Positions 21,987-58,773 are shown, counted from the stretch's first letter. The stretch: DNA of 64,000 nt from an uncultured Actinomycetes bacterium (GCA_963835965.1 CAWIHQ010000004.1:151921-215920), one strand, 5' to 3'. Notes: generated from the sequence alone by a model not told the origin. Made by a program: numbers and translations.

Positions 21987-22928
21987 GTGTTCCTCAGCCG
22001 ATTCGCAGATCCGACCCCCAGTAACCGCCCGAACCTGAGCTTCCGGCAGGAGCTCACTGCGACAGGCGCGCTCAAGGATGAGTGGAGCTTTGTTTGGGAC
22101 GACGCGCTGCGGTCGAACATCGCGGCGACCCTCCAGGACGTGGAGTTCGATGTCTACCTCGTGAACCGGTACAACGTCTTCTGGACGCCGCGCGCGATGA
22201 AGTTCAAGCACGCGATCGTCCAGGCGGCATCGGTCGCGGAGGCCGTCCTCGATTACATGCTCCGGATGGTCGAGGACGACCCGCGAGCGCAGAAGGAGCT
22301 TGGCTCGAAGTGGACGCTGCGGGACTTCGCGAAGGTCCCGATGCCCGGCGTGGACTTGCCGGAGGGAGTACGCGTCGTCTCCGGCACCCAGGAGCAGATT
22401 CCGAACGTCCTCGACCGGAATACGAAGATGCAGCTGCTGATACGAGCGGCCCGCGCGGTCGAGATCGTCGACGAAGATCTCGCCAAGGAACTGGACACGC
22501 TCCGCGACCTCAGGAACCGCATCCACATCAAGACCCTCACGGACCCTGAGTACGACGCGTACGAGCCGAAGATGGCGAACGATGCGCTCGACGTTCTCGC
22601 ACGCTTCCGCGATGTTGCTCTCCAGTGGACCGTAGAAACGCGGGCGGCGGAACTGCGCGAGCCCGTGCTGTCCAACGACCTCACGAGCCAGGTCAGGTCT
22701 GCGCACGCGAACCGCGACGACAACACCGAGTTCGACGTGGCCGCGGCGCTGGCGGTCGATGACCTGGTGGTTCACTCGACCCTCGGCGAAGGGCTGGTCG
22801 TCGCCGTCGAGGGCGAAATCGTCTCTGTGCGCTTCTTCGGCGACGGCGCCGTTCGTCGGTTGATGCTCCCTTACGCCCCGATGTACAAGACCGGGGTGTT
22901 CAGGGCCGACGACGACATCCCGTTCTAG
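21987..22928 (+). CDS. Hypothetical protein: HEPN-like helical domain (RDLRNRIH) fused to a C-terminal PcrA/UvrD-type Tudor-like domain
   Basis: 313-aa ORF from GTG 21987 with coherent protein-like sequence. ...LAKELDTLRDLRNRIHIK... fits Rx4-6H. The C-terminus DDLVVHSTLGEGLVVAVEGEIVSVRFFGDGAVRRLMLPYAPM resembles the helicase C-terminal Tudor motif G..V.H..FGEG.V..V.G....V.F...G.K.L.L.YAPL. Confidence 0.6.
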   Translation: MFLSRFADPTPSNRPNLSFRQELTATGALKDEWSFVWDDALRSNIAATLQDVEFDVYLVNRYNVFWTPRAMKFKHAIVQAASVAEAVLDYMLRMVEDDPRAQKELGSKWTLRDFAKVPMPGVDLPEGVRVVSGTQEQIPNVLDRNTKMQLLIRAARAVEIVDEDLAKELDTLRDLRNRIHIKTLTDPEYDAYEPKMANDALDVLARFRDVALQWTVETRAAELREPVLSNDLTSQVRSAHANRDDNTEFDVAAALAVDDLVVHSTLGEGLVVAVEGEIVSVRFFGDGAVRRLMLPYAPMYKTGVFRADDDIPF

Positions 22929-22929
22929 G

Positions 22930-23427
22930 TTGGCCACGAACGTTGTCTCCTTGCTCGTGGTCGCGCTCGGCGGCGGGATCGTCGCAGCGTTGTTGGGATC
23001 GTGGTTCGACCGGCTCTCGGCGCTGGAGGTCGCTCGACTAGTGGTGCAGGCGGAACTCATGGCCAACCTTGCGGCGCACCACGCATTCGCAGCCCTCGGA
23101 CCCGGCGACGAAGCACCGCATGTCCAGTACTCGACCAGCGGATGGCTCACCCACAGGGACAGGCTGGCCATCAGAGCGCAGCGTTTCCCGGACGTTTGGC
23201 AGGCGCTCACCAACTTCTACGCGCTTGTGCTGGCGCTGCCCTATGACAGCAGTCCGCTCGACGAGGACAGCGAGACGCAGGCGAGCTACGCCGTCGCGAA
23301 CCTCGACGTGCTGGAGCCGAGCACTCTGGAGCTCGTCCGGTGTATGGGCCACGACGCGCTTGGGCGATCTGGCGTGAGCGGCGCCGCGCGAGGGCCGCTC
23401 ACGCTAAAGGAACTGGCTGCTGACTAA
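22930..23427 (+). CDS. Small single-pass membrane protein, co-oriented and abutting the preceding gene
   Basis: TTG at 22930, 1 nt after the upstream TAG. N-terminal TM helix VVSLLVVALGGGIVAALLGSWF followed by a helical domain. Confidence 0.5.
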   Translation: MATNVVSLLVVALGGGIVAALLGSWFDRLSALEVARLVVQAELMANLAAHHAFAALGPGDEAPHVQYSTSGWLTHRDRLAIRAQRFPDVWQALTNFYALVLALPYDSSPLDEDSETQASYAVANLDVLEPSTLELVRCMGHDALGRSGVSGAARGPLTLKELAAD

Positions 23428-23535
23428 GCGGAAGGTCCGACCATTGGCTGCCCAACTTCCAGCAGCGTCTTGGGGCAGGTCGGGCCGGGTCGCGTCAGCG
23501 CCCGGGCGTTCGGATCGCCGCCCGGCCGGAAGCCC

Positions 23536-24153
23536 TCACCACGGGCTCTTCCCGACGAGGGACTTTGCTTCGGTCGCAATCGCCGTATCCACTTTCGCGC
23601 CGAGCTCCTCGACGAAGGCCCTCCAATCGAGGGCGTTCTGCTTGTAGAAGTCGGGAGGCGCCTTTCCCGTATCCACGATCTGCCCACGCTCTTCAACAAG
23701 CCTGTCTAGCTTCTCCTTGTCGTCGTCGGATAGATCGCAGAACGGGTCAACGCCCACGCGCTCGAAGAGACCGGCGACGGTTTTGACATCCGCTGACAGG
23801 ACGCCGAAGTCGCGGGCCTTCTCAGCGTCGCCCTTGGCCCGGGCTCGAACCATTTGGACCCAAAGTTCCCGCCACCCAGGGTGGACAACGAGATCCCATG
23901 CCGTCGGCGGCGGCTGCATCTTCATCAGCCAGTCTCGAACGCTCGCTGGGACGTTGCCCTCCCCGATTTGCTCTGCAAGCGCTGTTGTGACCTCGACGGC
24001 CACCTCCTCCACGTAGTTCTCCCACACTGCATATGAGAGCGCTACGGAGGCGACAAAGAGCGACTGCTCCTTCTTCGAGGGCTTGCCAACGCCCGACTTC
24101 GCAAAGCTCAGCACGTCATCGACCGCCTTGAGGCCGCCCCGCAAATCCTTCAA
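23536..24153 (-). CDS. Hypothetical protein with a RiboL-PSP/MAE_28990-type HEPN-like layout (Asp in place of the motif His)
   Basis: 205 aa. The N-terminal helix FVASVALSYAVWENYVEEVAVEV resembles the (A)HWEGF(V/I)K helix of these HEPN families. The C-terminal LDRLVEERGQIVDTG sits where L..L...RN.IAHG is expected. TTG at 24153 is the first possible start. Confidence 0.55.
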   Translation of the reverse strand: MKDLRGGLKAVDDVLSFAKSGVGKPSKKEQSLFVASVALSYAVWENYVEEVAVEVTTALAEQIGEGNVPASVRDWLMKMQPPPTAWDLVVHPGWRELWVQMVRARAKGDAEKARDFGVLSADVKTVAGLFERVGVDPFCDLSDDDKEKLDRLVEERGQIVDTGKAPPDFYKQNALDWRAFVEELGAKVDTAIATEAKSLVGKSPW

Positions 24154-24293
24154 TGCGTTGCTACGGCGATGGTGTGAAGCATGTCAGGGCTTACGACCAC
24201 CTAACCGCCTCTGCTCACGAAAAGGGCGGCTCGTCGCCGCCCCGTTCGACCCGTTCAGGTGTGCGCTACGCCGCGGGGCTAGCTCAGTCTGGA

Positions 24294-24794
24294 TCAGTCA
24301 TCGCACGTCATTTTTAGAGGTTTCAGACCGCTGAGGACGTACATCCAGCCGCCGGCGACGCTTTCCGCCGTCTTCGGCGCGCCCTCGAGTTGGTCGTGCA
24401 CGACGGTGAGCCTGGTGATGCCGCCGTCCTGGGGCTCGATCTCCCAGGTGACGCGGCTCTCCGCCTCCGCCGCCAGATCGGGGTCGTAACCCGCCGTCCA
24501 GCCGTGCACGAGCCTGCGCGGGGGATCGGCCTCGTACACCTCCTCGTCCCACTCGGCATCCCCGATCGCCGAGAAACGGCGGCCGTCGCGCACCTCGATG
24601 CGGGCGCCGAAGAAGTACTGCCGGGTGAACTCCGCCTGCGTGATCGCGTTCCAGACCTGCTCGGGTGTGGCGCGGATGAAGACGGAGTAGACCTGCGTCG
24701 TCTGTGCCAGCCCAGGGCCGCCGCTTGCGACGGCCCGGTCTTCCCGCTGGGCGTCCGCGGCTTTGCCGCCGACGTTTCCTGCAATGGTAGTCAT
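24294..24794 (-). CDS. SRPBCC/AHSA1-family protein
   Basis: YSVFIRATPEQVWNAITQAEFTRQYFFG..., RLVHGW..., TRLTVVHDQLEGAP...GGWMYVLSGLK. ATG at 24794 overlaps the arsR stop. Confidence 0.8.
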   Translation of the reverse strand: MTTIAGNVGGKAADAQREDRAVASGGPGLAQTTQVYSVFIRATPEQVWNAITQAEFTRQYFFGARIEVRDGRRFSAIGDAEWDEEVYEADPPRRLVHGWTAGYDPDLAAEAESRVTWEIEPQDGGITRLTVVHDQLEGAPKTAESVAGGWMYVLSGLKPLKMTCDD

Positions 24795-25108
24795 GCGGTG
24801 TCCTCCAGTTCGTGCTTGAGATCCGCGAGCGCCGCCACGCGGTGCTCGGTGTACTTGTCGATCCACCGGTCGTGGATGAGCCGGATCGGAACCGGGTTCA
24901 GGAAGTGGAGCTTCTCCCGGCCCTCCCGTCGGGTGACGACGAGCCCGGCTTCCTCGAGCACGCGCAGATGCTTCATCACACCGAAGCGGGTCATCTCCAG
25001 CTCGGACTCGAGCTCCGTGAGCGTGCGGCCGTCGCGCTCGAAGAGCTGGTCGAGCAAGTGACGCCGCGTCGGATCGGCGAGCGCCTTGAAGACCTGGTCG
25101 TCGTCCAC
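24791..25108 (-). CDS. ArsR/SmtB-family transcriptional regulator
   Basis: FKALADPTRRHLLDQL...RTLTELESELEMTRFGVMKHLRVLEEAGLV. This is the typical ArsR + SRPBCC gene pair. Confidence 0.85.
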   Translation of the reverse strand: MDDDQVFKALADPTRRHLLDQLFERDGRTLTELESELEMTRFGVMKHLRVLEEAGLVVTRREGREKLHFLNPVPIRLIHDRWIDKYTEHRVAALADLKHELEDTA

Positions 25109-25309
25109 CTTCTGGAGATTACGTGACCAAAGGCGATTTCCTTGACGGTAGGTAGTTCAGCGGCTATTCTTGGAGGGAGCAGGGGGCGGTGCTGAGGTTG
25201 GGTTAGTGTGACGAGTGCTCGAAGGAAGGGGAGGCCCTGCTGGTGTACTGTCGTGTAGCGTGTCTCGACTCGATCTCCCGACTCCTCGACTCTCGATCTC
25301 CTCTCATCC

Positions 25310-25986
25310 GTGATCGGGAGGTGAAATCGACGGCCACGACATCTCCATGACCTTGTCGTGTCTCGCGGGTCGCCGCGTCCCCGCTTCGGGAACTCGCTCG
25401 GACGCCTGCGAGCGTCGGGTGGAACTCCGGAATACGGATCGCAGTAGATGCGCCCTGGCTCTCGTTCGTCCCGCGCTTATCGTCCCATTCGAGCTTGCGC
25501 CCCTCGTCCGCTTTCGCGTGCCGGTCGGCGAGACCTTCGGCGTCTGGAAGAGAGGGCTGAGCGGAACATCGCCTGCGTAGCGGGCGGCATTGAGGTAGAA
25601 GGCGATCGCCTTCCGCGCTGTGTCGCCCGCACCCCGTATTCGGCGAACACCTCCAACAGCTGTCCCGTGGTCGCGTTCTCCTTGCCAAGCTAGACGGCTT
25701 CGGGGTAGTGCTCGCGGAGGACGCGTGCCAGCACCGTCTGCCGCTCGGACTTCGAGCCATGACGAACTCATGCAAGATCGGGAGCGCGGCCCGTCCGCGT
25801 CGATGAAGCGAGCGAGCGCATTCCCGCGATGTACTGCGTCTGCGCCGCGCCCGACATTCCCAGGAGGAATGAGCGATCGATGCGCTTCGGGATGCCCTTC
25901 TCCTTCATCAGATCCGCCTGGTTCAGGAAGGTCTTGTACGCGAAGTACGGGGGCGCCTGCTTGGAACTATCCGTGGCTGTCTCCAT
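25310..25986 (-). pseudogene. DUF5343-like gene, disrupted by frameshifts and a stop
   Basis: Frame 1: METATDSSKQAPPYFAYKTFLNQADLMKEKGIPKRIDRSFLLGMSGAAQTQYIAGMRSLA. It continues in other frames (RQTVLARVLREHYPEAV*, ..ATTGQLLEVFAEYGV.., ..ARKAIAFYLNAARYAGDVPLSPLF). Family call is from memory. Confidence 0.5.
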
Positions 25987-26152
25987 CAGCCAACCTCCTG
26001 GTACGTGTGGATTGTCTCGCGTACCGTAGCCGGTACACCCGCGTGGCGCAAACACGGATGCCGGAGAAGTGCGGATTTCTTTGGCACGACCCGACTGTCT
26101 CGCGTAGCTTGGGAGCAGGAGGTGAGTGCAAATGCGCTTGGCTGAGCCAGGA

Positions 26153-26350
26153 ATGGCGGTGACGGTTCGCACGGCGGATGGAAAGGAACTCGCGCGTGTG
26201 GCTGTCAGCGGTGTGGTCGATGGGGCAGATTTCCCGTCGTCTGGGTCTGCTCGGAGGAGGAATGGGCCGCGGCGCACGGGAGCGGGAACGTTCCGACAGC
26301 GCTTCCGTGGCCTGCGGAGGATGTACGGCCGGCTGAGGAACAGGTGCCCG
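26153..26350 (+). pseudogene. Small hypothetical gene with a +1 frameshift
   Basis: MAVTVRTADGKELARVAVSGVVDGADFP then, one base out of frame, VVWVCSEEEWAAAHGSGNVPTALPWPAEDVRPAEEQVPA*. The second half is protein-like only in the shifted frame. Confidence 0.35.
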
Positions 26351-26459
26351 CGTGACCGAGAAGAAAGAGCCGGAGGAGAAGCCCTATGCGCGAGCGGACT
26401 TCATGCGCGATCTCGGAGAAGGCATCTAGGAAGCTAGAGCCGGAGAAGAAGGCGAAGAA

Positions 26460-27345
26460 GCGAACGCCCTTCCGGACGTTCCGGAGGAAGACCTTGAACA
26501 TCGGCACGCGATCGTGGCGGTGGCTGTACTTGAACGCGAACTCCTGCACGTAGAGTCCGAGCCACTTACGGGCTGACGTTGTGCTGGACGCCTGAGAGCC
26601 CACGCTTCACGTTGCCGAAGAACCCCTCGATCGTCTGCGTATGAACGTCGCCCTGCGCGTAGATCGATTCCGTGTGCTTGATCGTGTAGTGACGTGCGAA
26701 CTCCGCGCCAAGTCCCGCATATAGCGTGAACTCGTCCGTGTAGATCGTCGCGTCTGGGCTGACGTTGGCGCGGATTGCGGCGTGGAGCGTTTCGCGGCTC
26801 CGGTCCGGAACGACGATCGCGCGTGCCCGACCGCCGCGCTCGACCATTGCGAGATCGTCGGGCGACTCTGAATCTTCGCCATAGCGTCCTGCCGACGCCG
26901 TGTCGATGTTGCGGCGCGCGACGGTCCCCTGCTCGAATCTTCCCGCCCCACGCTGACTCGTCAATCTCGACCTCGCCGCGCAACGGCGTTGTGTCGTCGT
27001 CGAGTAGGAGGCGCCGGATCATGTTGAACATGCGCCATGCCGTCTTGTACGTCACGCCGATTTCGCGTTCGAGTTGCTTCGCGCTGATACCGCAGCGTGT
27101 CTGGCTCATGATGAAGATCGCGTGGAACCACACCGCAACGGCGTCGTGGACTTCTCGAAGATCGTCCCCGCTGTCGGATGGACATGGTGGCCGCACGAAT
27201 CGCATGAGACGAGTGCGGCCTTTACGCGATGGACCGGCGTGGTCTGCCGCACTTCGGACAATCGGCAGTGATCCGTCGACGCTGGGAGTTGCGCCAGAGG
27301 TATGAGGCAGGCGTCATCCGTCGGGAACGGTGGAAAGGTGAGCGT
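26460..27345 (-). mobile_element. IS1595-family (ISXO2-like) transposase gene remnant with at least 3 frameshifts
   Basis: The pieces lie in four frames. (1) Zn-ribbon/N-terminus ...FPTDDACL...CDSCGHHVHPTAGTIFEKSTTPL. (2) WFHAIFIMSQTRCGISAKQLEREIGVTYKTAWRMFNMIRRLL...GEVEIDESAWGG. (3) DDE core ...AIVVPDRSRETLHAAIRANVSPDATIYTDEFTLYAGLG..HYTIKH...YAQGDVHTQTIEGFFGNVKRGLSGV. (4) KWLGLYVQEFAFKYSHRHD. No inverted repeats identified. Confidence 0.7.
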
Positions 27346-27413
27346 GTACGCTTGGGGCGGGGGGCGCAGAAGAAAGGAGTGGGGCAAGGTCACATGTCAA
27401 GTTGTCCCTTCGC

Positions 27414-28004
27414 TCAGCTGAACGGCTTCATCAGCATGTCGAAGACGACGACCATGAGCACGGCGACGTCGATGCGCGCGATGAGGAGAATTTCCTTGAT
27501 CGCGGCCTGCGTCTCTGCCGCGGCGGCGCCCTTCGTCTCGAGCAGGTTCGCGACCCGCTTCGCACGCGGGGAGAGGAAGGCGATGCCGGTCGTGAAGGTC
27601 ATCGCATAGCCGACGAGGCCGATGACCACCCAGGTCGTGCCGAAGCCGATGTGGTCGTTGATCACCATCGTGATCCCCATCGCCAGCACGACGAGACCGG
27701 CCGGCGCGAACAGCTTCTCGCCGACGAACGCCGCCTGGCGGGCGATGGTCGCGAGCTCCTCCGGGTCGTTCTTGTTCTGTGCCAGGAGCGCGAGCACGGT
27801 GAGCATGATCCCGCCGCCGACCCAGAAGACGGCGACGCCGACGTGGATCAGCTTGAACACGGCGAACCAGTGCGAGGGCGCGTCGGTCGTGTTCAGGGCG
27901 AAGATCAGGCCGACGGCGGCGACGGCCAGGCCGATTCCGACGGTGAGCGAGCGGGAAGCGCCGGTGTCGGTCCGCGGCGCCTCGGCGAGGGGAGTCGTAT
28001 CCAT
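27414..28004 (-). CDS. DUF2269-like integral membrane protein
   Basis: About 196 aa from ATG 28004 with 4-5 hydrophobic helices (HVGVAVFWVGGGIMLTVLALL, LVVLAMGITMVI, WVVIGLVGYAMTF, IDVAVLMVVVFDMLMKP). Confidence 0.6.
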   Translation of the reverse strand: MDTTPLAEAPRTDTGASRSLTVGIGLAVAAVGLIFALNTTDAPSHWFAVFKLIHVGVAVFWVGGGIMLTVLALLAQNKNDPEELATIARQAAFVGEKLFAPAGLVVLAMGITMVINDHIGFGTTWVVIGLVGYAMTFTTGIAFLSPRAKRVANLLETKGAAAAETQAAIKEILLIARIDVAVLMVVVFDMLMKPFS

Positions 28005-32180: not shown

Positions 32181-32268
32181 CGTTTCCTTCCCGTGTTCAG
32201 TGTGAGTGGAGGCGGTTCTACCCGCCCTCCCAATGGTAGGAACGCCTCAGCCTAGACTTGCCTTCCCG

Positions 32269-35200
32269 ATGCTGAAGCCAATCTTCCAACCTCTACCGGA
32301 CAAACCCGATCATCCTCGCCTCGAGGAGGAGGTGCTCGCGCTTTGGGAAGCCGAGGGCACGTTCGCGAAGCTCCGCGAGCTGAACCGCGGCGGACCGACC
32401 TTCTCCTTCGTCGACGGCCCGGTGACGGCGAACAGGTTCTCGCTCGGCGTTCACACGGCTTGGGGACGGACGCTGAAGGACGTCTTCCAGAGGTACAAAG
32501 CGCTGCGCGGCTTCGACCAGCGGTACCAGAACGGCTTCGATTGCCAGGGGCTCTGGATCGAAGTGGGTGTCGAGCGCGAGCTCGGCCTCAACTCGAAGCG
32601 CGAGATCGAGGACTTCGGCCTCGAGGAGTTCGCCCGCCGTTGCCGCGACGTGGTCGTGCGGTCGTCCGAGGCACTGACCCGCGGCTCGATTCGCCTGGGC
32701 CAGTGGATGGACTGGGGCAACGACTACCTCACGTCCAGCGACACGAACATCGAGTACGTCTGGCGGATGCTGAAGTCGGTCCACGAGCGGGAATGGCTCT
32801 ACCTCGGCCATCGCTCGACGGAGTGGTGTCCGCGCTGCGGCACCTCGATCTCTCAGCACGAGCTGATCGGGTCGTACGTCGATCGGGCCGACCCGTCGCT
32901 ATACGTGCGCCTTCCGCTGCTCGACCGCCCCGGCGAGTACCTGGTCGTCTGGACGACGACCCCGTGGACGCTGCCGGCGAACGTCGCAGCCGCGGTCAAC
33001 CCGGAGGCGGAGTACGGCCGCCGGAAGAATGGCGAGTGGGTTGCGGCCGCGCGCTATCCGACTGAGGAGCTCGAAGACCGGCGGCGGGGCGCGGACCTCG
33101 TTGGCTGGACCTACCGCGGCCCCTTCGACGACCTGACGGAAGTGGACCACCGGGTCATTCCGTGGGACGAAGTCTCGATGGACGAGGGCACCGGCATCGT
33201 GCACATCGCGCCCGGCTGCGGGACCGAGGACTTCGAGCTCGCGCAGGTGCATGGGCTCGAGGTGATCCAGCCGGTCGACGAGTCGGGTCGCTTCTACGAC
33301 AACTTCGGCTGGCTGCACGGGCTCTCGACCACCGAGGCCGCAGAGCAGATCATCGGCAACCTCGAGGAGAAGGGCGTTCTGGTCGAGGCCGGGCTGCACG
33401 AGCACCGCTATCCGGAGTGCTGGCGGTGCCACACGCCCTTGATCTTCCGCATCGCTGATGACTGGTTCATCTCGGTCCGCGAGTTGCGGCAGCAGATGCT
33501 CGACGCGAACGCGACGGTTGAGTGGACGCCGGAGTACATGGGGAAGCGGATGGACGACTGGCTCCGCAACATGGGTGACTGGAACATCTCCCGCCGCCGC
33601 TACTACGGACTGCCGCTGCCCTTCTATCCCTGCGCGTGCGGGCACCTCAACGTGATCGGGTCGCGCGCCGAACTCGAGGAGCGTGCCGTCTCCGGGCTCG
33701 AGCAGCTGGAGGAGCTCCGGCGGCCGTGGATCGACCGCGTGCCGGTGCGCTGCGCGGAGTGCGGCGAGCCGGTCGCACGGATCATCGAGGTCGGCGACGT
33801 GTGGCTCGACGCGGGGATCGTCCCGTTCTCGACGCTCGGCTGGGAGAACCCGGTGTGGGTGGAGGAGGGAAACGCGACGGGCGCCGCGCGCGGGCTGACG
33901 AAAGCGGACCTTCCGGATCACGCCTACTGGGAGAAGTGGTTCCCGGCGGACTGGGTGAGCGAGATGCGCGAGCAGATCCGCCTCTGGTTCTACTCGCAGC
34001 TCTTCATGTCCGTCGTCCTGACGGGCGGCGCCCCATTCAGACGTGTCCTCGGCTACGAGAAGATGCTCGACGAAAGCGGTCGCGAGATGCACGCGTCGTG
34101 GGGTAACACGATTCCGGCCGAGGAGGCGTTCGGGCGGATGGGCGCGGACGTGATGCGGTGGCAGTACTGCTCGCAGCCGCCCGACCGCAACCTGCTGTTC
34201 GGTTACGGCACGGCCGAGGAACTGAAGCGCAGGCTCCTCACCTTGTGGCACTCCGTCAAGTTCTTCGTCGATTACGCGAACGTCGCCGGATTCCGGCCGT
34301 CCTGGGAGAGCCTCCAGCCGGACGCAGTCGAGCCGCTCGACCGCTGGCTCGTCGAGCGGACGCGCGCCTTCGTCGCCGACGCGACTGCCGGCTACGAGCG
34401 CTGGCTGTCACCAGACGTGTTGCGCGACTTCGAGGTGTACCTCGACGACCTCTCGAACTGGTACATCCGCCGCTCAAGGCGCCGGTTCTGGGACAGCGAC
34501 GAGGTCGCGCTGAGGACCCTCTGGTACGCGCTGGTGCAGACGCTCCGCGTCCTCGCGCCGATCCTCCCCTTCATGACCGACCACCTCTGGCGCGCGCTGG
34601 TCGTCGACGGGCCCGAGTCGGTGCACCTCGCCGGCTGGCCCGAGGTTGCCGAGCCGGACCGAGCGCTTCTCGACGAGATCACGGCGGTGCGGCGCGTCGT
34701 GGAGCTCGCCCGGCAGGCGCGCTCGAGCTCGGGAATCAAGCTGCGGCAGCCGCTGCGTCGGCTCGTCGTCGAGGGCGCGAGCGTCGACGGCCATCTCGAC
34801 GAGGTCGCAGACGAGCTGCGCGTGAAGGACGTCGAGCTCGGGCCGGTAGAGGCGGTCGAGCTGCGTGTCAAGCCGAACCTGCCGGTGCTCGGACCGAAGC
34901 TCGGCCGTGAGCTCGGCGCAGTGCGCGAGGCGCTCGCGGCGGGCGAGTTCGAGGAGCTGCCGGACGGCCGCTTCCGGGCGGCCGGTCGCGAGCTGGAGCC
35001 GGACGAGGTGCTCGTCGAGCGGGGCGGGCGAGAGGGCTGGGCGGTCGCATCGGGCGACGGCGTGACGGTCGCGCTGGACCTCGGCCTCGACGACGAGCTC
35101 GTCCTCGAGGGCGAGGCGTACGAGCTCATCCACCTCGTCAACTCGCTCCGCAAGGAGCGTGGCCTCGAGCTGACGGACCGGATCGAGCTCACCGTGCCCG

Positions 35201-35319
35201 AGAGACAACGCGATCTGGCCGACCGTCACGGCGACTGGATTTCGCGCGAAGTCCTCGCGACCGAGCTCCGCGTCGCAGGCGATGAACTAAAGCTCGCGAA
35301 GCTGCGCTTCGCTCGCTGA
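32269..35319 (+). CDS. ileS: Isoleucyl-tRNA synthetase homolog (type-2 architecture) with non-canonical catalytic signature motifs
   Basis: Editing domain WTTTPWTLPAN and GTGIVHIAPGCGTEDF. CPRCGTSISQHEL, RYPECWRCHTPLIF, DWNISRRRYYGLPLP. IleRS-type C-terminal domain (REGWAVASGDGVTVALDL...ELIHLVNSLRKERGLELTDRI). However, HIGH reads LGVH and KMSKS reads EMHAS. ATG 32269 chosen (ORF open from 32206). Confidence 0.85.
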   Translation: MLKPIFQPLPDKPDHPRLEEEVLALWEAEGTFAKLRELNRGGPTFSFVDGPVTANRFSLGVHTAWGRTLKDVFQRYKALRGFDQRYQNGFDCQGLWIEVGVERELGLNSKREIEDFGLEEFARRCRDVVVRSSEALTRGSIRLGQWMDWGNDYLTSSDTNIEYVWRMLKSVHEREWLYLGHRSTEWCPRCGTSISQHELIGSYVDRADPSLYVRLPLLDRPGEYLVVWTTTPWTLPANVAAAVNPEAEYGRRKNGEWVAAARYPTEELEDRRRGADLVGWTYRGPFDDLTEVDHRVIPWDEVSMDEGTGIVHIAPGCGTEDFELAQVHGLEVIQPVDESGRFYDNFGWLHGLSTTEAAEQIIGNLEEKGVLVEAGLHEHRYPECWRCHTPLIFRIADDWFISVRELRQQMLDANATVEWTPEYMGKRMDDWLRNMGDWNISRRRYYGLPLPFYPCACGHLNVIGSRAELEERAVSGLEQLEELRRPWIDRVPVRCAECGEPVARIIEVGDVWLDAGIVPFSTLGWENPVWVEEGNATGAARGLTKADLPDHAYWEKWFPADWVSEMREQIRLWFYSQLFMSVVLTGGAPFRRVLGYEKMLDESGREMHASWGNTIPAEEAFGRMGADVMRWQYCSQPPDRNLLFGYGTAEELKRRLLTLWHSVKFFVDYANVAGFRPSWESLQPDAVEPLDRWLVERTRAFVADATAGYERWLSPDVLRDFEVYLDDLSNWYIRRSRRRFWDSDEVALRTLWYALVQTLRVLAPILPFMTDHLWRALVVDGPESVHLAGWPEVAEPDRALLDEITAVRRVVELARQARSSSGIKLRQPLRRLVVEGASVDGHLDEVADELRVKDVELGPVEAVELRVKPNLPVLGPKLGRELGAVREALAAGEFEELPDGRFRAAGRELEPDEVLVERGGREGWAVASGDGVTVALDLGLDDELVLEGEAYELIHLVNSLRKERGLELTDRIELTVPERQRDLADRHGDWISREVLATELRVAGDELKLAKLRFAR

Positions 35320-40710: not shown

Positions 40711-40739
40711 CGGCGAAGCAGCCGTAGACTGCGTCTCGT

Positions 40740-40814
40740 CGGGGCGTAGCTCAGCCTGGTCAGAGCGCCCGGTTTGGGGCCGGGAGGCCGGCAGTTCGAA
40801 TCTGCCCGCCCCGA
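40740..40814 (+). tRNA. tRNA-Pro (anticodon TGG)
   Basis: CGGGGCG/CGCCCCG acceptor stem, GCTCAGCCTGGTCAGAGC D-arm, anticodon loop TTTGGGG, GGCAG-TTCGAAT-CTGCC T-arm. CCA not encoded. Confidence 0.9.
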
Positions 40815-40852
40815 TTCCGCGCCGGGATCGCGGCCGCTTCCGTTCAGACCCC

Positions 40853-42034: not shown

Positions 42035-42105
42035 GCGGGTGTAGCTCAATGGTAGAGCCCTAGCCTTCCAAGCTAGTTACGCGGGTTCGACTCCCGCCAC
42101 CCGCT
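42035..42105 (+). tRNA. tRNA-Gly (anticodon TCC)
   Basis: GCGGGTG/CACCCGC acceptor stem, GCTCAATGGTAGAGC D-arm, anticodon loop CTTCCAA, GCGGGTTCGACTCCCGC T-arm. Confidence 0.9.
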
Positions 42106-47746: not shown

Positions 47747-47826
47747 CACGGAAGTGTGGCTGATCCGGCCCGACGATGACGCGTCCTTCACCACGTCCGC
47801 GAGTCTCCAGTCAGGTGAACTCCGAG

Positions 47827-47899
47827 TGCGCCCGGGAGGATTCGAACCTCCGACCCGCGGATTAGAAGTCCGCCGCTCTGTCCACTGAGCTACGGGCGC
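47827..47899 (-). tRNA. tRNA-Arg (anticodon TCT)
   Basis: Reverse complement: GCGCCCG-TA-GCTCAGTGGACAGAGC-G-GCGGA-CTTCTAA-TCCGC-...-GGAGGTTCGAATCCTCC-CGGGCGC-A. Confidence 0.9.
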
Positions 47900-50673: not shown

Positions 50674-50999
50674 CCTTGGCCTCCCGCGACGGGGGTCCTC
50701 GCCCGGGCGAGTGTCCGGAGAGGACCCCTGACGCGTTGGGTCGTAAGACCTTTCAGGCGGTCGCAAGTCCCGGAGCACGCGTCGCATATCTGAGCGATGC
50801 TTCCGCCAGAGGAGATCCGCCCTGCCCTTCTGATCCGCGGACTCTCCGCTTGCACAACCTCGCCGAGGATGGCGGCCGGGAAGCCGCCGACGATCCAGAG
50901 CCAGACGAAGAGCGCCGCCATCTGCCGAGACTTCTCTCTCAGCGCCTCCGTGCGGCCGCCACAAATCTCAACCCGTTCGAAACGGGCGCTTCGGGCAAG

Positions 51000-51073
51000 G
51001 GTGGCGGACGGGACTCGAACCCGCGGCCACCGGGACCACAACCCGGAGCTCTACCAACTGAGCTACCGCCACC
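51000..51073 (-). tRNA. tRNA-His (anticodon GTG) with encoded G-1
   Basis: Reverse complement: G-GTGGCGG-TA-GCTCAGTTGGTAGAGC-T-CCGGG-TTGTGGT-CCCGG-...-GCGGGTTCGAGTCCCGT-CCGCCAC-C. G-1:C73 pair. Confidence 0.9.
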
Positions 51074-51123
51074 GAGCCGGCACAGCGTAGCGAGGAACCA
51101 GGCGAGATACCCTCTTTGCGCTC

Positions 51124-51195
51124 GGCCCCGTAGCTCAGCGGACAGAGCGGCAGCCTTCGAAGCTGCGTGCGGAGGTTCGATTCCTCCCGGGGCCG
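51124..51195 (+). tRNA. tRNA-Arg (anticodon TCG)
   Basis: GGCCCCG-TA-GCTCAGCGGACAGAGC-G-GCAGC-CTTCGAA-GCTGC-...-GGAGGTTCGATTCCTCC-CGGGGCC-G. Confidence 0.85.
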
Positions 51196-51346
51196 TAAAA
51201 CCATCGATTTGCAGGAATTTTCAGCTTGGAGAGGGGCCACGAAGCGTCACAGACTCCGCCGGGACGTCACGAGTCGTCGAATGCGTGGGTACCCCGGTGG
51301 TGCCCCGTCCGCTAGCTGTCCGCGGGCTGATCGCTGGAGTGGCGCG

Positions 51347-53393: not shown

Positions 53394-53683
53394 TCACCTC
53401 GCCGCGCGCCGTCGTACAAATAGAAGAGCCTGCGCGCGTGACTGGGACCGGTGTGCAGCGTCGACCGGTTCTTCATTGGCCGCTCATGACGGGCAAGAGT
53501 TCGTACGCTGTGGCGATGGCACGTCTTGATGCCGCCACCGGCGATGGGATCGCGCGGCTGGAGGAGGCGGGAGACCTGGGAGACCTTCTGTTGACCCACT
53601 TTGCCGTCCAGCTAGACAACGCGGCCGGCGCGACCGCCATGGCCGATCGCTGACTGCCGAGAGCGTGGCCACCTTGCGCGGCT

Positions 53684-54424
53684 CTAGGGGATCGTCTGCG
53701 TCTGCCCGCTTCTGAAGTGGACTTTGAACCCACGGACGGCCGCCGACCACTTGCCTACGTAGACCCAGACGTTGTCCTTGACCGGAACGGTCACTGTGAG
53801 GCGGCGGTTTGCCGGGAACGACACGGCAGTCGCACCGTCGAGAGTGATGCCCCAGCTGATGGCAGGCGATTCCCCATGCGGCCCTTTGAATGCCCGGAAG
53901 CTCTCAACGGTGCTCGGCACCTTCTGAGTCAGCGGTGACGTACATCCAAGGGAGTAGCCCCCGCGCTTCATGTTGCTGGCGAGGCGGGGCATTCGCTCCA
54001 TCACTACGCAGAGTTCGTCGCCGGTGGCCGCAACGGCAAAAACGCGTGCCCCGTCCGGGAGCTGCCTGACTAGACGCGAGGTGTCAGGCTCCAGCAGGCC
54101 TCGTCTGCTGTGCGTTAGCCGCGCTCGCTGCTTGTTGTCGAAGCGAATTGACGCAACGACGGCCGGGTCGAGTCTGTCGGCTGCGGTGCGCGGATGCTGG
54201 GCGGCTTTGATCCCGTGAAACGCACCGACGCTCGCAGCGATTGCTACGCCCACGCCGACTAGCGCGCCAACGGCCACTGCGGCGACGAACACTCGCCGCA
54301 ACGGCCGACGAGCGGTCACGGAACCGGCGCGACGCAGCACATCACTCCAATCTGCACGACCGCGATCCGGCAGCGGGAGCATCCGCCCCAGCTCGGAAGC
54401 GATCAGCGGCTCCACGTCGATCAT
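53684..54424 (-). CDS. Single-pass membrane protein downstream of an ECF sigma gene (anti-sigma-like position)
   Basis: 4-nt overlap with the sigma gene. TM helix VFVAAVAVGALVGVGVAIAA after about 45 cytoplasmic residues. Confidence 0.55.
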   Translation of the reverse strand: MIDVEPLIASELGRMLPLPDRGRADWSDVLRRAGSVTARRPLRRVFVAAVAVGALVGVGVAIAASVGAFHGIKAAQHPRTAADRLDPAVVASIRFDNKQRARLTHSRRGLLEPDTSRLVRQLPDGARVFAVAATGDELCVVMERMPRLASNMKRGGYSLGCTSPLTQKVPSTVESFRAFKGPHGESPAISWGITLDGATAVSFPANRRLTVTVPVKDNVWVYVGKWSAAVRGFKVHFRSGQTQTIP

Positions 54425-54915
54425 CGCTCAACCTCCTCCAAAGATCGCCGAAGCGCTTGATGTGCCGAACTCAACGACGCCGACACCGTGCCCACCTCGA
54501 CACCGAGTGCCTCGGCGATTGCGCGGTAGTCAAGGTCGGCGTAGTAGCGCAGATAGACAGCAAGCCGTTGCCGCTCAGGCAGGGCCGCGACCCAAGCACG
54601 AACACCCGCCTCATCGGCGTTGCGCCCGTTCGCACTCCGGGCCTCGAACGCTTCGGGAACTTCGCGTCGGGCGACACGGCGACGTCGTGAAGCCAGAGCC
54701 GCGTTTACAACCATCCGCCACACCCAGCCCTCCACTGAGCCCTCATCCCGGAATGACCGCTGCACGCGTAGCGCCTGCGCAAACCCGTCCTGCACCGCGT
54801 CATGGCCTGCTGCTTCGTCGCCAAGGATCGCGGTCGCCACTCGGAGAAACTGTCGGTATCGTCGCCGATAGACCGCCTCGAGTTCGGGCGTGAGCGGAGC
54901 GCTTCGTGTCATCAC
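54421..54915 (-). CDS. ECF-type RNA polymerase sigma factor (sigma-70 regions 2 and 4)
   Basis: DAVQDGFAQAL..., EGWVWRMVVNAAL, LPERQRLAVYLRYYADLDYRAIAEALGVEVGTVSASLSSAHQAL. Confidence 0.85.
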   Translation of the reverse strand: MMTRSAPLTPELEAVYRRRYRQFLRVATAILGDEAAGHDAVQDGFAQALRVQRSFRDEGSVEGWVWRMVVNAALASRRRRVARREVPEAFEARSANGRNADEAGVRAWVAALPERQRLAVYLRYYADLDYRAIAEALGVEVGTVSASLSSAHQALRRSLEEVER

Positions 54916-55072
54916 CTAAACGATGCACCAGAGCCGGCAGTTTGTTTAGTCGCGCGTGTGCTTCGCGTTAGCGACGTGCTCGCTAGCCCAAACCACAGAC
55001 GAGCTGTGGCGCCAGAGGTCGACTGCCCGGGTTGCGCTGGCCCGGCGATCGCAGCCGACATCAGCAGCTAGC

Positions 55073-55549
55073 TCAGCCTCGTCGTTGCGGTGGTGCGACC
55101 AGGTAGTCGAACCGGACCGCGCCAGCTGGCCCGGCGAGCTTGACGAGACGCACATGCCAGGTGGCCTTGGGCATGGGACACCACTCTTCGGCTTGGTTGC
55201 AGATCTCGTACGGCCCTTTGTGTCGGCAGGAGAGAGATGCGTCGCGGCCTCGTTGGTCGGACCAGCTGATCACGCCTGCACCGGCGAGGTGGGGGATCGA
55301 GGCGTAAGCAGTCACGCGCACACCGCGGCGGACGGTGAGCCGGTTGATGAGGATGACGCCGCTTCGCTCGCGAAGCGTGAAAGTGCGCGACGCTCGTCCG
55401 GCTGGCAGCTGAAATGTCCGCGCGGTTTCGAAGCCCCGTGTGGCGGTACGCGCCCGATTTGGCGCAGTCGCGCCAGACGGCTGCACGGCGAATAGAGCAG
55501 CTACTCCTGCGATCACGGCGCAACCGAAACTCAACCGTCGCAACGCCAC
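55073..55549 (-). CDS. Secreted hypothetical protein
   Basis: GTG 55549 chosen. Signal-like LRRLSFGCAVIAGVAALFAV, then a beta-rich region with Cys residues. Confidence 0.45.
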   Translation of the reverse strand: MALRRLSFGCAVIAGVAALFAVQPSGATAPNRARTATRGFETARTFQLPAGRASRTFTLRERSGVILINRLTVRRGVRVTAYASIPHLAGAGVISWSDQRGRDASLSCRHKGPYEICNQAEEWCPMPKATWHVRLVKLAGPAGAVRFDYLVAPPQRRG

Positions 55550-55641
55550 CAACAGTGATACGGGAGGCAGGGCGTTAGAAGTCCCGCGGATCTCGGCGCG
55601 CTCCGGGACCGTTTTCCGGGACGGCGGCGTAATCCGGGTGG

Positions 55642-56649
55642 ATGCTTCGCTGGGCCACCTCCATTGTCGGCGCGTTCCTCCTCGTCGTCGCCGCCGCCCC
55701 GGCATCGCAGGGACGCGACCTGGGGCTGGCGCTCCGGCTTGGCGGAACACCCTTGCAACTGCTGGCGGCTCGTGGCTCGCTCTGGGTCCTGACCTGCGAT
55801 CGCGGCTGCACGGGAGAAGCTCGTCACTCGATCGGTCGCATCATCCGCATCGATCCACGGAACGCACGAGTTGTCGCTTCGGCCAAGATTCCGCGACCGG
55901 ACACCGTTGCAGTCGGGGCGGGTGGCCTTTACGCGACCGACTTCGAGCACGGCACGATTCGCCGACTCGATCTCCACACGCTGGCGGTCGTCGGCGCGCT
56001 CAAGCTCAAGCTTCCGTTTCGATTCTCAGCGCGCGATAACGCCTTTCTCCCAGAGGCGGTTGCGGTGGGACGAGACGCCGTCTGGGTCGTCAGCGACCGC
56101 GGCGCGGTCGTTCGCGCAGACCTGCGGCTGCACCGTGCCGTGGCGAGCCTGCGCATGCCCCCGGACGCGTTCGGCGACCCGGTTGGCGGAATAGCAGCGG
56201 ACACGGGTGGCGCCTGGTCGGCGGAGAGTTTGGCCGGTGTTTATCGCGTCGACCAGCGAGCGAATCGGATCAGCGCCAAGATTCGCGTGCCGTTGGCGAC
56301 GGGCCGGTTTGACGCAGTGCAGGTCTTCCCGCTGGCCGGTCAGGTCCTAGTTCTCGGCGTCAAGACGTCCGGGGGCGCGCTCACGCAACGCAACCTGCTC
56401 GCTCGGATCGACGCGAACCACAACCGGGTCGAAAGAATCACGTCTCTTCCGTCAGGCCGAGTGGTGGCCACAACCGGGGCCGGCTCGCTCTGGGTCGCAA
56501 GACTCGGAGGAGCAACCGTAGGGCGCGTAGACCCGCGTACCGGCCGGGTTGTCGCCCGCTTCCGAGCGCATGCCGGTACGGCGCTGGCAGTCTCGGGCGG
56601 TCACCTTTGGACGGTCTCGCCGCGCGGCGTGGTTCGCCAGGTGAGATGA
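55642..56649 (+). CDS. Secreted beta-propeller-like repeat protein
   Basis: Signal peptide MLRWATSIVGAFLLVVAAAPASQG. Recurring ..G.LWV../..VWVV.. strand motifs about every 40-50 aa. Confidence 0.55.
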   Translation: MLRWATSIVGAFLLVVAAAPASQGRDLGLALRLGGTPLQLLAARGSLWVLTCDRGCTGEARHSIGRIIRIDPRNARVVASAKIPRPDTVAVGAGGLYATDFEHGTIRRLDLHTLAVVGALKLKLPFRFSARDNAFLPEAVAVGRDAVWVVSDRGAVVRADLRLHRAVASLRMPPDAFGDPVGGIAADTGGAWSAESLAGVYRVDQRANRISAKIRVPLATGRFDAVQVFPLAGQVLVLGVKTSGGALTQRNLLARIDANHNRVERITSLPSGRVVATTGAGSLWVARLGGATVGRVDPRTGRVVARFRAHAGTALAVSGGHLWTVSPRGVVRQVR

Positions 56650-56742
56650 GCGACTGAACAGAACGGCGTCCTCGCCCGCGACAAGGTCGGTCTTACGCTC
56701 GGCGCTCGGGACTCCGTTCGAGCGGTCGCACGTAGGAGAGGC

Positions 56743-57924
56743 ATGCACCTCGATCGGTGGTTGGTCGTTCTCCTGCTCGCCGCCGTTCCGTTGCTCGCCG
56801 TCGCGGGCAGCTCCGCTGCTTCTCCTGCTGCGTCGTGCCGCTGGCGGACGGCTGCAGTGGAGGAGCCACACCAAAATCTGTTCAACGCCCTCAACTCGGT
56901 AACGGCAACGCGGTCCGGAAGGGCATGGGCGATCGGTAGCTACTACACGGGTAAGGAGGCAGGCCCGAGCGGCGCCTTCATCGAGGAGTGGATGGGGCGA
57001 CGCTGGCAGCTGGTGGGACGACCGTTGCCGAACGCCGACCTCTGGTCGGTATCGGCCTCCGACAACAACGACGCATGGGTGGTCGGCGACCATCTGGTCG
57101 AACACTGGACTGGATATACGTGGCGCAAGGTCAGGACGGCACGCGTTCCTGGCCGCAGCATCCTCCATGCGGTCGCCGCGGTTGGACCGCGGAACGCTTG
57201 GCTCGTGGGTTCGAAGTGGCAAGGTGCCGGAACCCGCGCCGAGACGCTCGTCGAGCACTGGAACGGAAGACGCTGGAGCGTCGTTCCGACACCGAATCCT
57301 CCCGTAGTTGCGTCGCGTCAAGATGCGGGCTTTGAAGCTGTGAGCGCTCGCTCCGCCTCGGATGTCTGGGCCGTCGGCTACGAGATCGTCGGCGGGCGAG
57401 GAGCCACCGTCCGCCACGGGAAGCCTGCCGCGGGGACGTTGATCGAGCACTGGAGCGGACAACGCTGGCAGATCGTGCCAAGTCCGAGCGTCCGTGCGGG
57501 CAACGGCGTTCTCAACGACAATCTCTTCTCAGTCTCGGCTGACCGTTCCAACGATGCCTGGGCGGCAGGCAGTTGGGGCAGCGGACACATCCTCGGTTAT
57601 GGCGGCGGCGGCGACCATGCCCTCGTTCTGCACTGGGATGGACAGAGCTGGTCTCGTGCCTCGCTGCCCAAGATTGCCAAGCGGAGTCTTCTTGGGGGTG
57701 TCGCGGCTCGGAATGGACGTGCCTGGGCGGTCGGTGACCAGGGTGAACAACCCCGACAATCGACGTTGGTCGAACGCTGGAATGGAACTGCGTGGGCCGA
57801 GTCGCAAAGCCCGAGCGGCTTCACGCTGGCAGCCATCTCGATCCCACGGCGTGGCGCTGGATGGGCAGTCGGTTCAGCTGGAAGGAAGCCGCTTGCCGCG
57901 CGACTCGTCTGCGGCCGCAGTTAA
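56743..57924 (+). CDS. Secreted beta-propeller-like protein with (V/I)EHW(N/S/T)G..W repeats
   Basis: Signal peptide. Repeats IEEWMGRRWQ, VEHWTGYTWR, VEHWNGRRWS, IEHWSGQRWQ, VLHWDGQSWS, VERWNGTAWA, each preceded by ..AW(A/V)VG. Confidence 0.65.
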   Translation: MHLDRWLVVLLLAAVPLLAVAGSSAASPAASCRWRTAAVEEPHQNLFNALNSVTATRSGRAWAIGSYYTGKEAGPSGAFIEEWMGRRWQLVGRPLPNADLWSVSASDNNDAWVVGDHLVEHWTGYTWRKVRTARVPGRSILHAVAAVGPRNAWLVGSKWQGAGTRAETLVEHWNGRRWSVVPTPNPPVVASRQDAGFEAVSARSASDVWAVGYEIVGGRGATVRHGKPAAGTLIEHWSGQRWQIVPSPSVRAGNGVLNDNLFSVSADRSNDAWAAGSWGSGHILGYGGGGDHALVLHWDGQSWSRASLPKIAKRSLLGGVAARNGRAWAVGDQGEQPRQSTLVERWNGTAWAESQSPSGFTLAAISIPRRGAGWAVGSAGRKPLAARLVCGRS

Positions 57925-57953
57925 ATCTCGGGCGCCAGCCTCGCGGCTGGCCG

Positions 57954-58724
57954 CTATCCGTGTGCGAGCGGGTAGGTGAGGCCCGGCCTCGCTGCAGTGA
58001 AGCCGTCTCCGTCGGGCATCCAGCCTGCGTTGGTGAGGCCCGAGTTGCTGCTTTTGGCATCGAGCTCGAAGAACCAAGGGCGCACGTTCGGAGGGTGGCC
58101 GATGCTCAAGATGATCCGCTGAAGCATGTCGGCTGCTGCAGCAGATCCAGCACCGGGATCAGCAGTCCGGAACACGAAGACGCACGTCCCGTTGATCCAG
58201 GGGAGCGTCTTCGCGGAGTCGAGCGTGAGCGAAGCTTGCCCGGCGGCAGCCGCCGTCGCCGCTGAGTCGCACGTTCCCGGCGCGAGCGGAGAAACGTTCG
58301 GATCACTCTCGATCGGGTCGCCCTTCAGCGACCACCCCAGGAGGGATCGACCATTGGTGTCTCGATAGCGAACGGTCGTAATCGGATGTTGCCCGTGCGC
58401 ACGCTGCCAGTCGGCGACAGCATGGCCGAGCACCTGAGCCTCGAACACCGCTTTGTTCTCGTACGTGTCAGCCGCTCCGACATCGCTCGGATGCGGAACC
58501 GAGAGCGTGACGATGAGGAGCAACCCTTCGACGGAGGCAGAGACGATCCGCCGGTCGCCGAAGCTCCGCTGCACCTGCGCGACAACAGCATCAACATCCT
58601 TCGCCCGCCTCAGCGAAGTCGGTAGGGCTGCGGCGCCGCCTCTACTAGCAACTCCGCCAACGATAGCCCCGGCGATCACCGCCGCGACGAGAGCCGCAGC
58701 GAGGACTCGGCGCCTTCTCGTCAT
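57954..58724 (-). CDS. Membrane-anchored hypothetical protein
   Basis: ATG 58724 chosen (MTRRRRVLAAALVAAVIAGAIVGGV TM/signal anchor). Confidence 0.5.
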   Translation of the reverse strand: MTRRRRVLAAALVAAVIAGAIVGGVASRGGAAALPTSLRRAKDVDAVVAQVQRSFGDRRIVSASVEGLLLIVTLSVPHPSDVGAADTYENKAVFEAQVLGHAVADWQRAHGQHPITTVRYRDTNGRSLLGWSLKGDPIESDPNVSPLAPGTCDSAATAAAAGQASLTLDSAKTLPWINGTCVFVFRTADPGAGSAAAADMLQRIILSIGHPPNVRPWFFELDAKSSNSGLTNAGWMPDGDGFTAARPGLTYPLAHG

Positions 58725-58773
58725 GCCGCGAAGGCGTGTCACTTCGAACTTCCGGACGGACTGGCTGAGAACT

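Follow-up and report, generated by a model that had tools for sequence, protein, structure and literature searches.

The KMSKS loop's second lysine is regarded as the key transition-state ligand in class I aminoacyl-tRNA synthetases, and the gene described here, ileS, which encodes an isoleucyl-tRNA synthetase (IleRS) from which both KMSKS lysines have disappeared, raises the question of whether such a protein may still be a working enzyme. The gene lies in a 64,000-nucleotide stretch of DNA from an uncultured Actinomycetes bacterium (GCA_963835965.1, CAWIHQ010000004.1:151921-215920), which, in its whole length, is referred to as the window:

32269..35319, + strand: ileS, type-2 isoleucyl-tRNA synthetase, "type A" allele (without the second KMSKS lysine), 1016 amino acids, ATG start

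An alternative GTG start is located at 32206. The initial annotation, made from the sequence alone, had proposed two possibilities: a lineage-specific non-canonical IleRS, or a paralog in which the aminoacylation chemistry is lost (or changed) while editing is retained. We consider that the gene probably encodes a functional, lineage-specific type-2 IleRS (IleRS2) of the Gaiellaceae (Thermoleophilia, Actinomycetota), in which the HIGH loop, instead of the KMSKS loop, now carries the catalytic cation.

Placement of the class I signatures

The type-2 architecture claimed in the initial annotation is borne out by Pfam (PF00133 tRNA-synt_1, PF08264 Anticodon_1 and PF19302 DUF5915), by the NCBIfam equivalog model for ileS (TIGR00392, 636.4 bits for a cutoff of 621.4) and by a full-length alignment (E=1e-173) to the closest solved structure, the IleRS2 from Priestia megaterium (PmIleRS2, 8C8U/8C8W). 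An AlphaFold 2 (AF2) model of the protein (pLDDT 89.1, pTM 0.80) was matched by Foldseek to PmIleRS2 8C9D/8C8U (TM 0.81) and to yeast IleRS (TM 0.82), and all the elements of the class Ia architecture were found, namely a HUP domain interrupted by CP1, an anticodon-binding domain and a type-2 C-terminus without a Zn-binding domain. With the NCBIfam models for MupA and MupB, the protein scores 495 and 484, far below the cutoff of 1900.

The class I signatures were placed by residue-by-residue alignment to PmIleRS2 and to the T. thermophilus (Tt) IleRS:

32425..32445, + strand: HIGH loop, T-A-N-R56-F-S-L, where R56 replaces the canonical Gly (Tt G51)
32446..32457, + strand: HIGH equivalent, G60-V-H62-T63 (Tt H54-V-G-H57), of the G/AxHH type with the fourth His changed to Thr
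32533..32556, + strand: GFDCQGLW, canonical GWDxHGLP (D91 = Tt D85, Q93 = Tt H87)
33961..33990, + strand: E565-M-R-E-Q569-I-R-L-W573-F, canonical E-G-x-D-Q-T-R-G-W-F (Tt E550-G-I-D553-Q554-T-R-G-W558)
34084..34098, + strand: KMSKS-equivalent loop, E606-M-H-A609-S610 (Tt K591MSKS595), both lysines gone

The GFDCQGLW, REQIRLW and EMHAS strings that had been singled out before are real and found at the expected positions, while the HIGH position, previously read as L-G-V-H, was off by one residue, the aligned register being G-V-H-T. In GFDCQGLW, the aspartate (D91) is retained, the histidine is replaced by glutamine and the proline by tryptophan. In EMREQIRLW, E565, Q569 and W573 are retained, and the ribose-binding G551 and D553 of the Tt enzyme are replaced by M566 and E568. 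The first three positions of GVHT fit the G/AxHH signature and the fourth is Thr, so that neither HxGH nor a complete G/AxHH is present, and not even the second lysine remains in the KMSKS-equivalent loop. A regular-expression search over the whole protein found no KMSKS-like string elsewhere, in agreement with the initial annotation, and no other HxGH- or GxHH-like string. The altered motifs are also present in 120/120 of the closest database homologues (77-93% identity; all annotated as isoleucyl-tRNA synthetase, from Gaiellaceae or Thermoleophilia metagenome-assembled genomes, MAGs) and in 78/81 genomic orthologues and, therefore, they are neither noise nor sequencing error.

Part of this remodelling has a well-characterized counterpart. 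G/AxHH is a non-canonical HIGH signature of many IleRS2, catalytically competent, in which the third-position His occupies the place of the first, and DrIleRS2, with a natural ALHH, has a normal kcat/KM (PMC10485003). The G/AxHH enzymes (Deinococcus radiodurans, Streptomyces griseus and the PmIleRS2 GVHH mutant 8C8W; Brkic et al. 2023, PMC10485003) are the best sequence and structure match of the window IleRS, with which they share the type-2 architecture with DUF5915, a Gly in the first HIGH position and the catalytic His in the third. Nevertheless, the window IleRS differs from them in having Thr instead of the fourth His, EMHAS instead of an intact KMSKS, and a Lys/Arg in the HIGH loop, and its GWDxHGLP and DQTRGW motifs are remodelled as well. 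These additional changes are discussed neither in PMC10485003 nor in a 2026 preprint on IleRS phylogeny.

Several of the changes are not restricted to the Gaiellaceae type A. An all-against-library HMMER search identified a wider sub-clade at 40-50% identity, which forms one clade with the query on a neighbour-joining (NJ) tree and whose named members are isoleucine--tRNA ligases in Gemmatimonadota, a Bacillota MAG and a DPANN archaeon. The motifs ITANNPMGVHHAWGRT, GFDCQGLW, EMREQxRLW (or ESFPGQFRNW) and x-M-H-K-S or F-S-K-T occur across this sub-clade and, given that they are shared, a KMSKS loop without its first lysine, the Q/W form of GWDxHGLP and the M-R-E form of G-x-D are features of the sub-clade as a whole. 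Its members have every altered motif of the window IleRS except two Gaiellaceae-specific steps: unlike the window IleRS, they have the second KMSKS Lys (or Arg), His at HIGH position 4 and Asn/Gly three residues before HIGH. Outside the Gaiellaceae type A, the position of the second lysine is occupied by Lys or Arg in every listed full-length representative covering the loop and, among these, its loss is specific to the Gaiellaceae group. GFDCQGLW, EMREQxRLW and the missing first lysine are, in this way, not peculiar to this gene but common to a large and diverse group of IleRS2. A literature search on Gaiella aminoacyl-tRNA synthetases or KMSKS-less IleRS returned nothing relevant (the Gaiella occulta genome paper lists no synthetases), and the searchable literature contains no assays of any enzyme from the GFDCQGLW/EMREQxRLW sub-clade.

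Several other representatives (e.g. P0182, P0212, P0217, P0232, P0248, P0250 and P0256) combine a HIGH region of the form H-x-G-x with x-M-H-K-S at the KMSKS position; they resemble archaeal-type IleRS in their motifs, and their x-M-H-K-S indicates that the loss of the first KMSKS lysine recurs across IleRS lineages. Additionally, the window IleRS contains an insertion of ~20 amino acids (PVWVEEGNATGAARGLTKADLP..., window 33826-33930, residues ~520-554) that separates the W512 region from the EMREQ motif and where the model confidence is the lowest in the protein (pLDDT 69-74); only part of the wider sub-clade (P0124, P0125, P0131) has this insertion, which is missing from the canonical IleRS2.

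Covariation of the HIGH and KMSKS loops

The relation between the two loops was analysed in 318 Gaiellaceae sequences, which were classified according to the second KMSKS lysine (K2) and to the residue located three positions before HIGH (position -3). When K2 is present (n=119), position -3 is always Asn, Gly or Ala (Lys/Arg in 0/119) and HIGH position 4 is always His. When K2 is absent (n=199), Lys or Arg is found at -3 in 196 sequences, of which 188 have Thr and 8 have His at HIGH position 4. GVHH is, in this manner, kept by eight K2-less family members and by the 119 with K2, and Thr at position 4 is seen only alongside Lys or Arg at -3. The coupling extends to the nature of the residues involved, since a Lys in the HIGH loop pairs with Gly609 (104/104) and an Arg, together with a one-residue insertion, pairs with Ala/Ser609 (89/92); in the sister "K" state, the HIGH loop is one residue shorter and the Lys is found exactly three residues before HIGH. 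Among the genomic orthologues, 78/81 combine TAN-[K/R]...G-V-H-T with M-H-[G/A/S]-S, two (from loci L063 and L074) combine TAN-G...G-V-H-H with M-H-K-S, and one (L013) is intermediate, with TAN-K...G-V-H-H and M-H-G-S.

The two sites also change together on a tree. On an NJ tree (626 branches) built from all the alignment columns except the two motif windows, the HIGH loop changes state at least 31 times and position 609 at least 30 times, with 25 changes on the same branch for ~1.5 expected by chance, the figure of 25 being approximate because the intragenic recombination that was detected may distort the tree. The R-type is the nearest neighbour of 12 of the 104 K-type sequences (at ~90% identity), and the L074 protein, 86% identical to the type-A protein from L034 outside the motif windows, nonetheless has the ancestral state. 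The positions that follow the state are limited to 52, 56, 59, 63, 609 and 614, i.e. to the HIGH loop and motif and to the KMSKS loop, and the coupled positions of the two loops are 1.65 kb apart in the gene. Such tight coupling, regardless of having arisen by repeated substitutions or by small conversion tracts, argues for a direct functional interaction at the ATP/transition-state site.

A precedent for this kind of arrangement comes from the arginyl-tRNA synthetases (ArgRS): Sekine and co-workers are said to have found, in 2001, that the KMSK-less ArgRSs rely on a HIGH-loop lysine, and that KMSK and this lysine are mutually exclusive in ArgRS. In the E. coli ArgRS structure (PDB 4OBY), residues 118-145 read VDYSAPNVAKEMHVGH, where P-N-V-A-K-E-M-H-V-G-H places the Lys three residues before the first His. 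The Gaiellaceae K-type, with V-T-A-N-K-x-L-G-V-H-T, has its Lys three residues before the first HIGH position, which is the ArgRS register. Both the KMSK-less ArgRSs (which are many; PMC3956977) and type A are class I enzymes without the KMSKS lysine and with a Lys at -3, the two features being mutually exclusive also in the Gaiellaceae, as given by the counts above and by the joint changes on the tree. Type A differs from ArgRS in being a class Ia IleRS with an editing domain, in its non-canonical HIGH and in the use of Arg plus a one-residue insertion as an alternative to Lys, and the catalytic role of its HIGH-loop cation is a prediction made by analogy. Another difference is that ArgRS needs tRNA for activation (PMC3956977), which IleRS normally does not.

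We propose a stepwise remodelling of the ATP site. In the sub-clade, the site would have acquired G-x-H-H, GFDxQGLW, EMREQxRLW and x-M-H-K-S (with loss of the first lysine); in the Gaiellaceae type A, the second KMSKS lysine would then have been replaced by Gly/Ala/Ser and the fourth HIGH His by Thr, with the gain of a Lys/Arg at the position of Tt G51, three residues upstream of the first HIGH position (four in the Arg form, due to the insertion). The HIGH-loop cation (R56 or K56) would take over the phosphate/transition-state contact of the second KMSKS lysine, as in the KMSK-less ArgRSs, and H62 would supply the catalytic imidazole, as in the G/AxHH IleRS2, whereas isoleucine binding, tRNA binding and CP1 editing would be unchanged. 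We infer that R56/K56 is the source of the cation lost at 609 because of the ArgRS register and because the HIGH tip and the KMSKS loop are near each other in IleRS2 (PMC10485003); type A itself would be catalytically competent.

We see a small chance that the enzyme is active and that the lysine loss is compensated not (or not only) by R56/K56, and instead by a monovalent cation, a solution used by the human TyrRS and its KMSSS loop, by tRNA-dependent activation, as in ArgRS, GluRS and GlnRS, or by the use of a different nucleotide. The three K2-less sequences without Lys/Arg at -3, the change of ribose-binding residues across the sub-clade and the tRNA requirement of ArgRS, which is the closest analogue with a HIGH-loop cation (PMC3956977), would be consistent with such altered chemistry, but the near-perfect exclusivity between Lys/Arg and K2 is already a sufficient explanation.

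Constraint, copy number and allele exchange at the ileS locus

If the synthetic site had been abandoned, with only editing being retained, a canonical IleRS would have to charge tRNA(Ile) from elsewhere in the genome, and the protein studied here would bind tRNA(Ile) and/or hydrolyse Val-tRNA(Ile). The loss of both KMSKS lysines and of the fourth HIGH His, the changed ribose-binding Gly/Asp and the perfectly conserved editing motifs are what this non-aminoacylating paralog would predict. The residues that bear on it are the following:

32419..32421, + strand: P51 (Tt P46), invariant
33802..33804, + strand: W512 (Tt W518), invariant
32950..32982, + strand: CP1 editing motif WTTTPWTLPAN (residues 228-238), canonical
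33187..33234, + strand: CP1 editing motif GTGIVHIAPGCGTEDF (residues 307-322), canonical, with G307, G309, H312 and D321 invariant

Both editing motifs are canonical, as the initial annotation had stated, and WTTTPWTLPAN is identical in 121 sequences (the query and its 120 close homologues). The isoleucine pocket is equally well preserved: in a 59-sequence alignment comprising type A, type B (the K2-retaining allele described below) and canonical actinobacterial IleRS2, P51, D91, W512, Q569 and W573 (Tt P46, D85, W518, Q554 and W558) are invariant, and so are E565, H62, the Zn cysteines and the editing residues. The roles of the pocket residues reportedly go back to Nakama and co-workers in 2001 (the Tt numbering itself was verified by alignment); we take P51 to be a contact to the isoleucine amino group, D91 a ligand of the same group and W512 a wall of the side-chain pocket.

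The catalytic domain also evolves under strong constraint. Using 72 pairs more than 86% identical, the ratio of non-synonymous to synonymous substitution rates (dN/dS) is 0.118 for residues 1-200 (the N-terminal half of HUP) and 0.108 for residues 401-650 (CP2 and the C-terminal half of HUP), whereas the editing domain has a value of 0.111, the anticodon-binding domain one of 0.172 and the C-terminal domain one of 0.215. The HUP halves are, hence, constrained as strongly as the editing domain, the whole-gene value (0.14-0.19) is similar to those of the neighbouring ispH (0.11-0.15) and kinase genes, and the loop that replaces KMSKS, G-R-E-M-H-x-S-W-G-N, is itself almost invariant. These values indicate strong purifying selection on the synthetic domain. 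The synthetic site of type A is not decaying.

The copy number was evaluated in the loci and in a genome scan using one genome per species of GTDB, in which a relative is present in at least 572 genomes; the best 80 matches (71-89% identity) were analysed. All 80 are from Gaiellales, Gaiellaceae or Thermoleophilia MAGs and belong to 80 different assemblies, with one ileS copy per assembly, and neither the 64-kb window nor 1.14 Mb of DNA from related Gaiellales loci contains a second IleRS-like gene. The nearest canonical IleRS2 (P0156, with an ALHH motif) is 40% identical to the query and is found in an actinobacterial mtrB/lpqB context; its relatives are from Streptomyces, Kitasatospora and Acidimicrobiales, with no Gaiellaceae-named protein among them, which is weak negative evidence. 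Equally weak is the evidence from cluster look-ups of the closest canonical IleRS2, which gave Propionibacterium, Caldilineaceae, Eubacteriales, Halobacteriota or unnamed entries and no Gaiellales.

In all 81 Gaiellales loci, the gene order is trx(-)/ileS(+)/ispH(-), and the comparison with L063 shows that this slot can hold a different allele. A search with the L063 gene (L063:6001-9045) as seed revealed a second abundant Gaiellaceae family, type B, 80-94% identical to L063, annotated as ileS and with K2 kept. The flanking genes of L063 are 85-90% identical to those of the window (dN 0.03-0.09), and these flanks are as close to the window as those of genomes whose ileS is 86-89% identical to the one studied here, yet the L063 ileS is only 73% identical (dN 0.20). 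The difference is unevenly distributed along the gene, given that the identity is 54-80% over residues 1-750 but reaches 84-92% over residues 751-1016, and this mosaic, with a breakpoint near residue 750, points to intragenic homologous recombination or allele replacement. Moreover, no type A copy from the L063 assembly appears among the 80 best genome matches, where a high rank would be expected. Since both types are found in the same slot, they occupy one position and appear interchangeable, as positional alleles that homologous recombination has swapped. Their coexistence as paralogs in one genome was also considered and rejected, given the shared syntenic slot and the 80 best matches coming from 80 assemblies.

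With this evidence, we regard the non-aminoacylating paralog as very improbable. Its catalytic halves would not be expected to be constrained like the editing domain, nor its isoleucine pocket and H62 to be invariant, and the co-evolution of the conserved G-R-E-M-H-x-S-W-G-N with the HIGH loop would serve no purpose if the ATP site were dead; a K2-retaining allele fills the slot in the close relative L063, which shows no type A copy among the 80 best matches, and the single copy per assembly in these matches and (weakly) the lack of Gaiellaceae-named proteins among the relatives of P0156 also count against it. Of the two possibilities originally put forward, the lineage-specific non-canonical IleRS is the one that fits the single syntenic locus, the purifying selection, the invariant isoleucine pocket and the HIGH/KMSKS covariation.

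Why two such different alleles circulate is a separate question. Type A may have been driven by resistance, in which case the rebuilt ATP/adenylate site would be insensitive to an IleRS inhibitor from soil (a mupirocin-like compound or an aminoacyl-adenylate mimic), and recombination plus fluctuating selection would keep both the K2-retaining and the K2-less alleles in circulation; this explanation, which is compatible with a functional enzyme with a relocated cation, is possible but we consider it rather doubtful. It draws on the fact that GVHT derives from G/AxHH, a signature conferring mupirocin hyper-resistance (with the Ki raised up to 1000-fold in IleRS2; PMC10485003), and that changes in the KMSKS loop, and at residues upstream of HIGH, are known from self-immunity synthetases (AgnB2 LeuRS, PMC5059758), as well as on the deeply diverged alleles at one locus in genomes with close flanks, with their mosaic breakpoint, and on the interspersion of K, R and ancestral states on the tree. 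However, no biosynthetic cluster or resistance context adjoins ileS in the window and the 81 loci, no inhibitor is known for the habitat or the lineage, and the mixing of alleles could be neutral recombination among related lineages. The comparison with AgnB2 LeuRS (KQSKS, PMC5059758) and with the MupA/MupB IleRS is useful in this respect: they illustrate that signature changes are tolerated in a functional class Ia enzyme, as proposed for type A, but they are second copies linked to a producer cluster or plasmid, whereas the window ileS is chromosomal and in a housekeeping neighbourhood.

Some observations weigh against a functional IleRS with a relocated cation. We know of no characterised class Ia synthetase that lacks both KMSKS lysines, the ribose-binding Gly/Asp to Met/Glu change (M566, E568) may affect ATP binding, and the TIGR00392 cutoff is exceeded by a narrow margin. 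Three of the 199 K2-less sequences have no Lys/Arg at -3 (G/H/S twice and T/H/G once), meaning that the compensation is not absolute or that other residues, such as R605, contribute, and the number of joint changes is affected by the recombination mentioned above. Additionally, the view of type A as the probable sole IleRS of the genome draws on the loci and on the best 80 matches. Taking all this into account, we still favour a functional enzyme. For the broader proposal, in which type A is a housekeeping class Ia synthetase without KMSKS lysines and fourth HIGH His, with a HIGH-loop cation convergent with that of ArgRS, and in which interchangeable alleles recombine, possibly driven by an inhibitor, our preference is slight.

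Genomic surroundings and significance

The neighbours of ileS are ordinary chromosomal genes. In the window, these are a GCS2 ligase, a beta-lactamase-fold gene, a cNMP-binding gene, a divergent thioredoxin, ispH, a GAF/PAS histidine kinase, a response regulator and CtaG; around ileS in the 81 loci, GCS2, the beta-lactamase-fold gene, the cNMP-binding gene, the GAF histidine kinase and the response regulator are found. The intergenic region upstream of ileS is 88 nt long and contains no T-box or other leader, with Rfam (at gathering thresholds) finding only tRNAs in the window. There are five of these genes and none is a tRNA-Ile:

40739-40815: tRNA-Pro-TGG
42035-42105: tRNA-Gly-TCC
47826-47899: tRNA-Arg-TCT
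50999-51072: tRNA-His-GTG
51123-51196: tRNA-Arg-TCG

The possibility of a pseudogene or sequencing artefact was discarded given the intact open reading frame (ORF), the G+C content at third codon positions (GC3, 0.90, as in the neighbours) and the hundreds of homologues with identical motifs. Depending on the locus (e.g. L012, L016, L019), ileS and ispH are separated by anything between ~30 bp and several kb; in one of them, an aminotransferase gene is inserted between the two (L001:13058-14137), while in the window no gene was called in the 450 bp that separate them. The G+C content of the window is ~70%, and two stretches, 22000-28000 and 53400-60300, have a lower G+C (0.64-0.67 vs ~0.70) and few high-GC3 ORFs, most of the tested ORFs having no Pfam match. 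These stretches, which may be acquired islands, include two Pfam matches:

23536-24153, - strand: HEPN_RiboL-PSP, weak match
54421-54915, - strand: ECF-type sigma factor

Two observations concern canonical enzymes. Among the P0156-like canonical enzymes (ALHH motif) that are closest to the variant sub-clade are proteins from Streptomyces, Kitasatospora and Krasilnikovia (P0465 and P0468-P0471), which are only 55-57% identical to P0156 and may be second, resistance-type IleRS copies in their genomes. A different canonical-motif IleRS2, P0168, 39% identical to the query, is found at L083:5001-8114 and L084:5001-8114, surrounded by ~20 small ORFs, only one of which has a Pfam match (CLIPPER domain); this context could be viral, giant-phage or unusual archaeal.

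If type A is indeed a natural IleRS working without the second KMSKS lysine, the class I ATP site would be more plastic than assumed, and the HIGH-loop-lysine solution of ArgRS would be extended to an editing class Ia enzyme. The family constitutes a natural double-mutant cycle, with the K/G, R/A-S and ancestral G-N/K states on ~90% identical backgrounds, that can be used for dissecting the cooperation between the two loops. The type A alleles are, moreover, candidates for inhibitor-insensitive IleRS, building on the antibiotic hyper-resistance of HIGH variants in IleRS2. Finally, if type A works as proposed, an abundant soil lineage would have what is probably its only IleRS wrongly flagged by motif-based annotation or by filters for pseudogenes.

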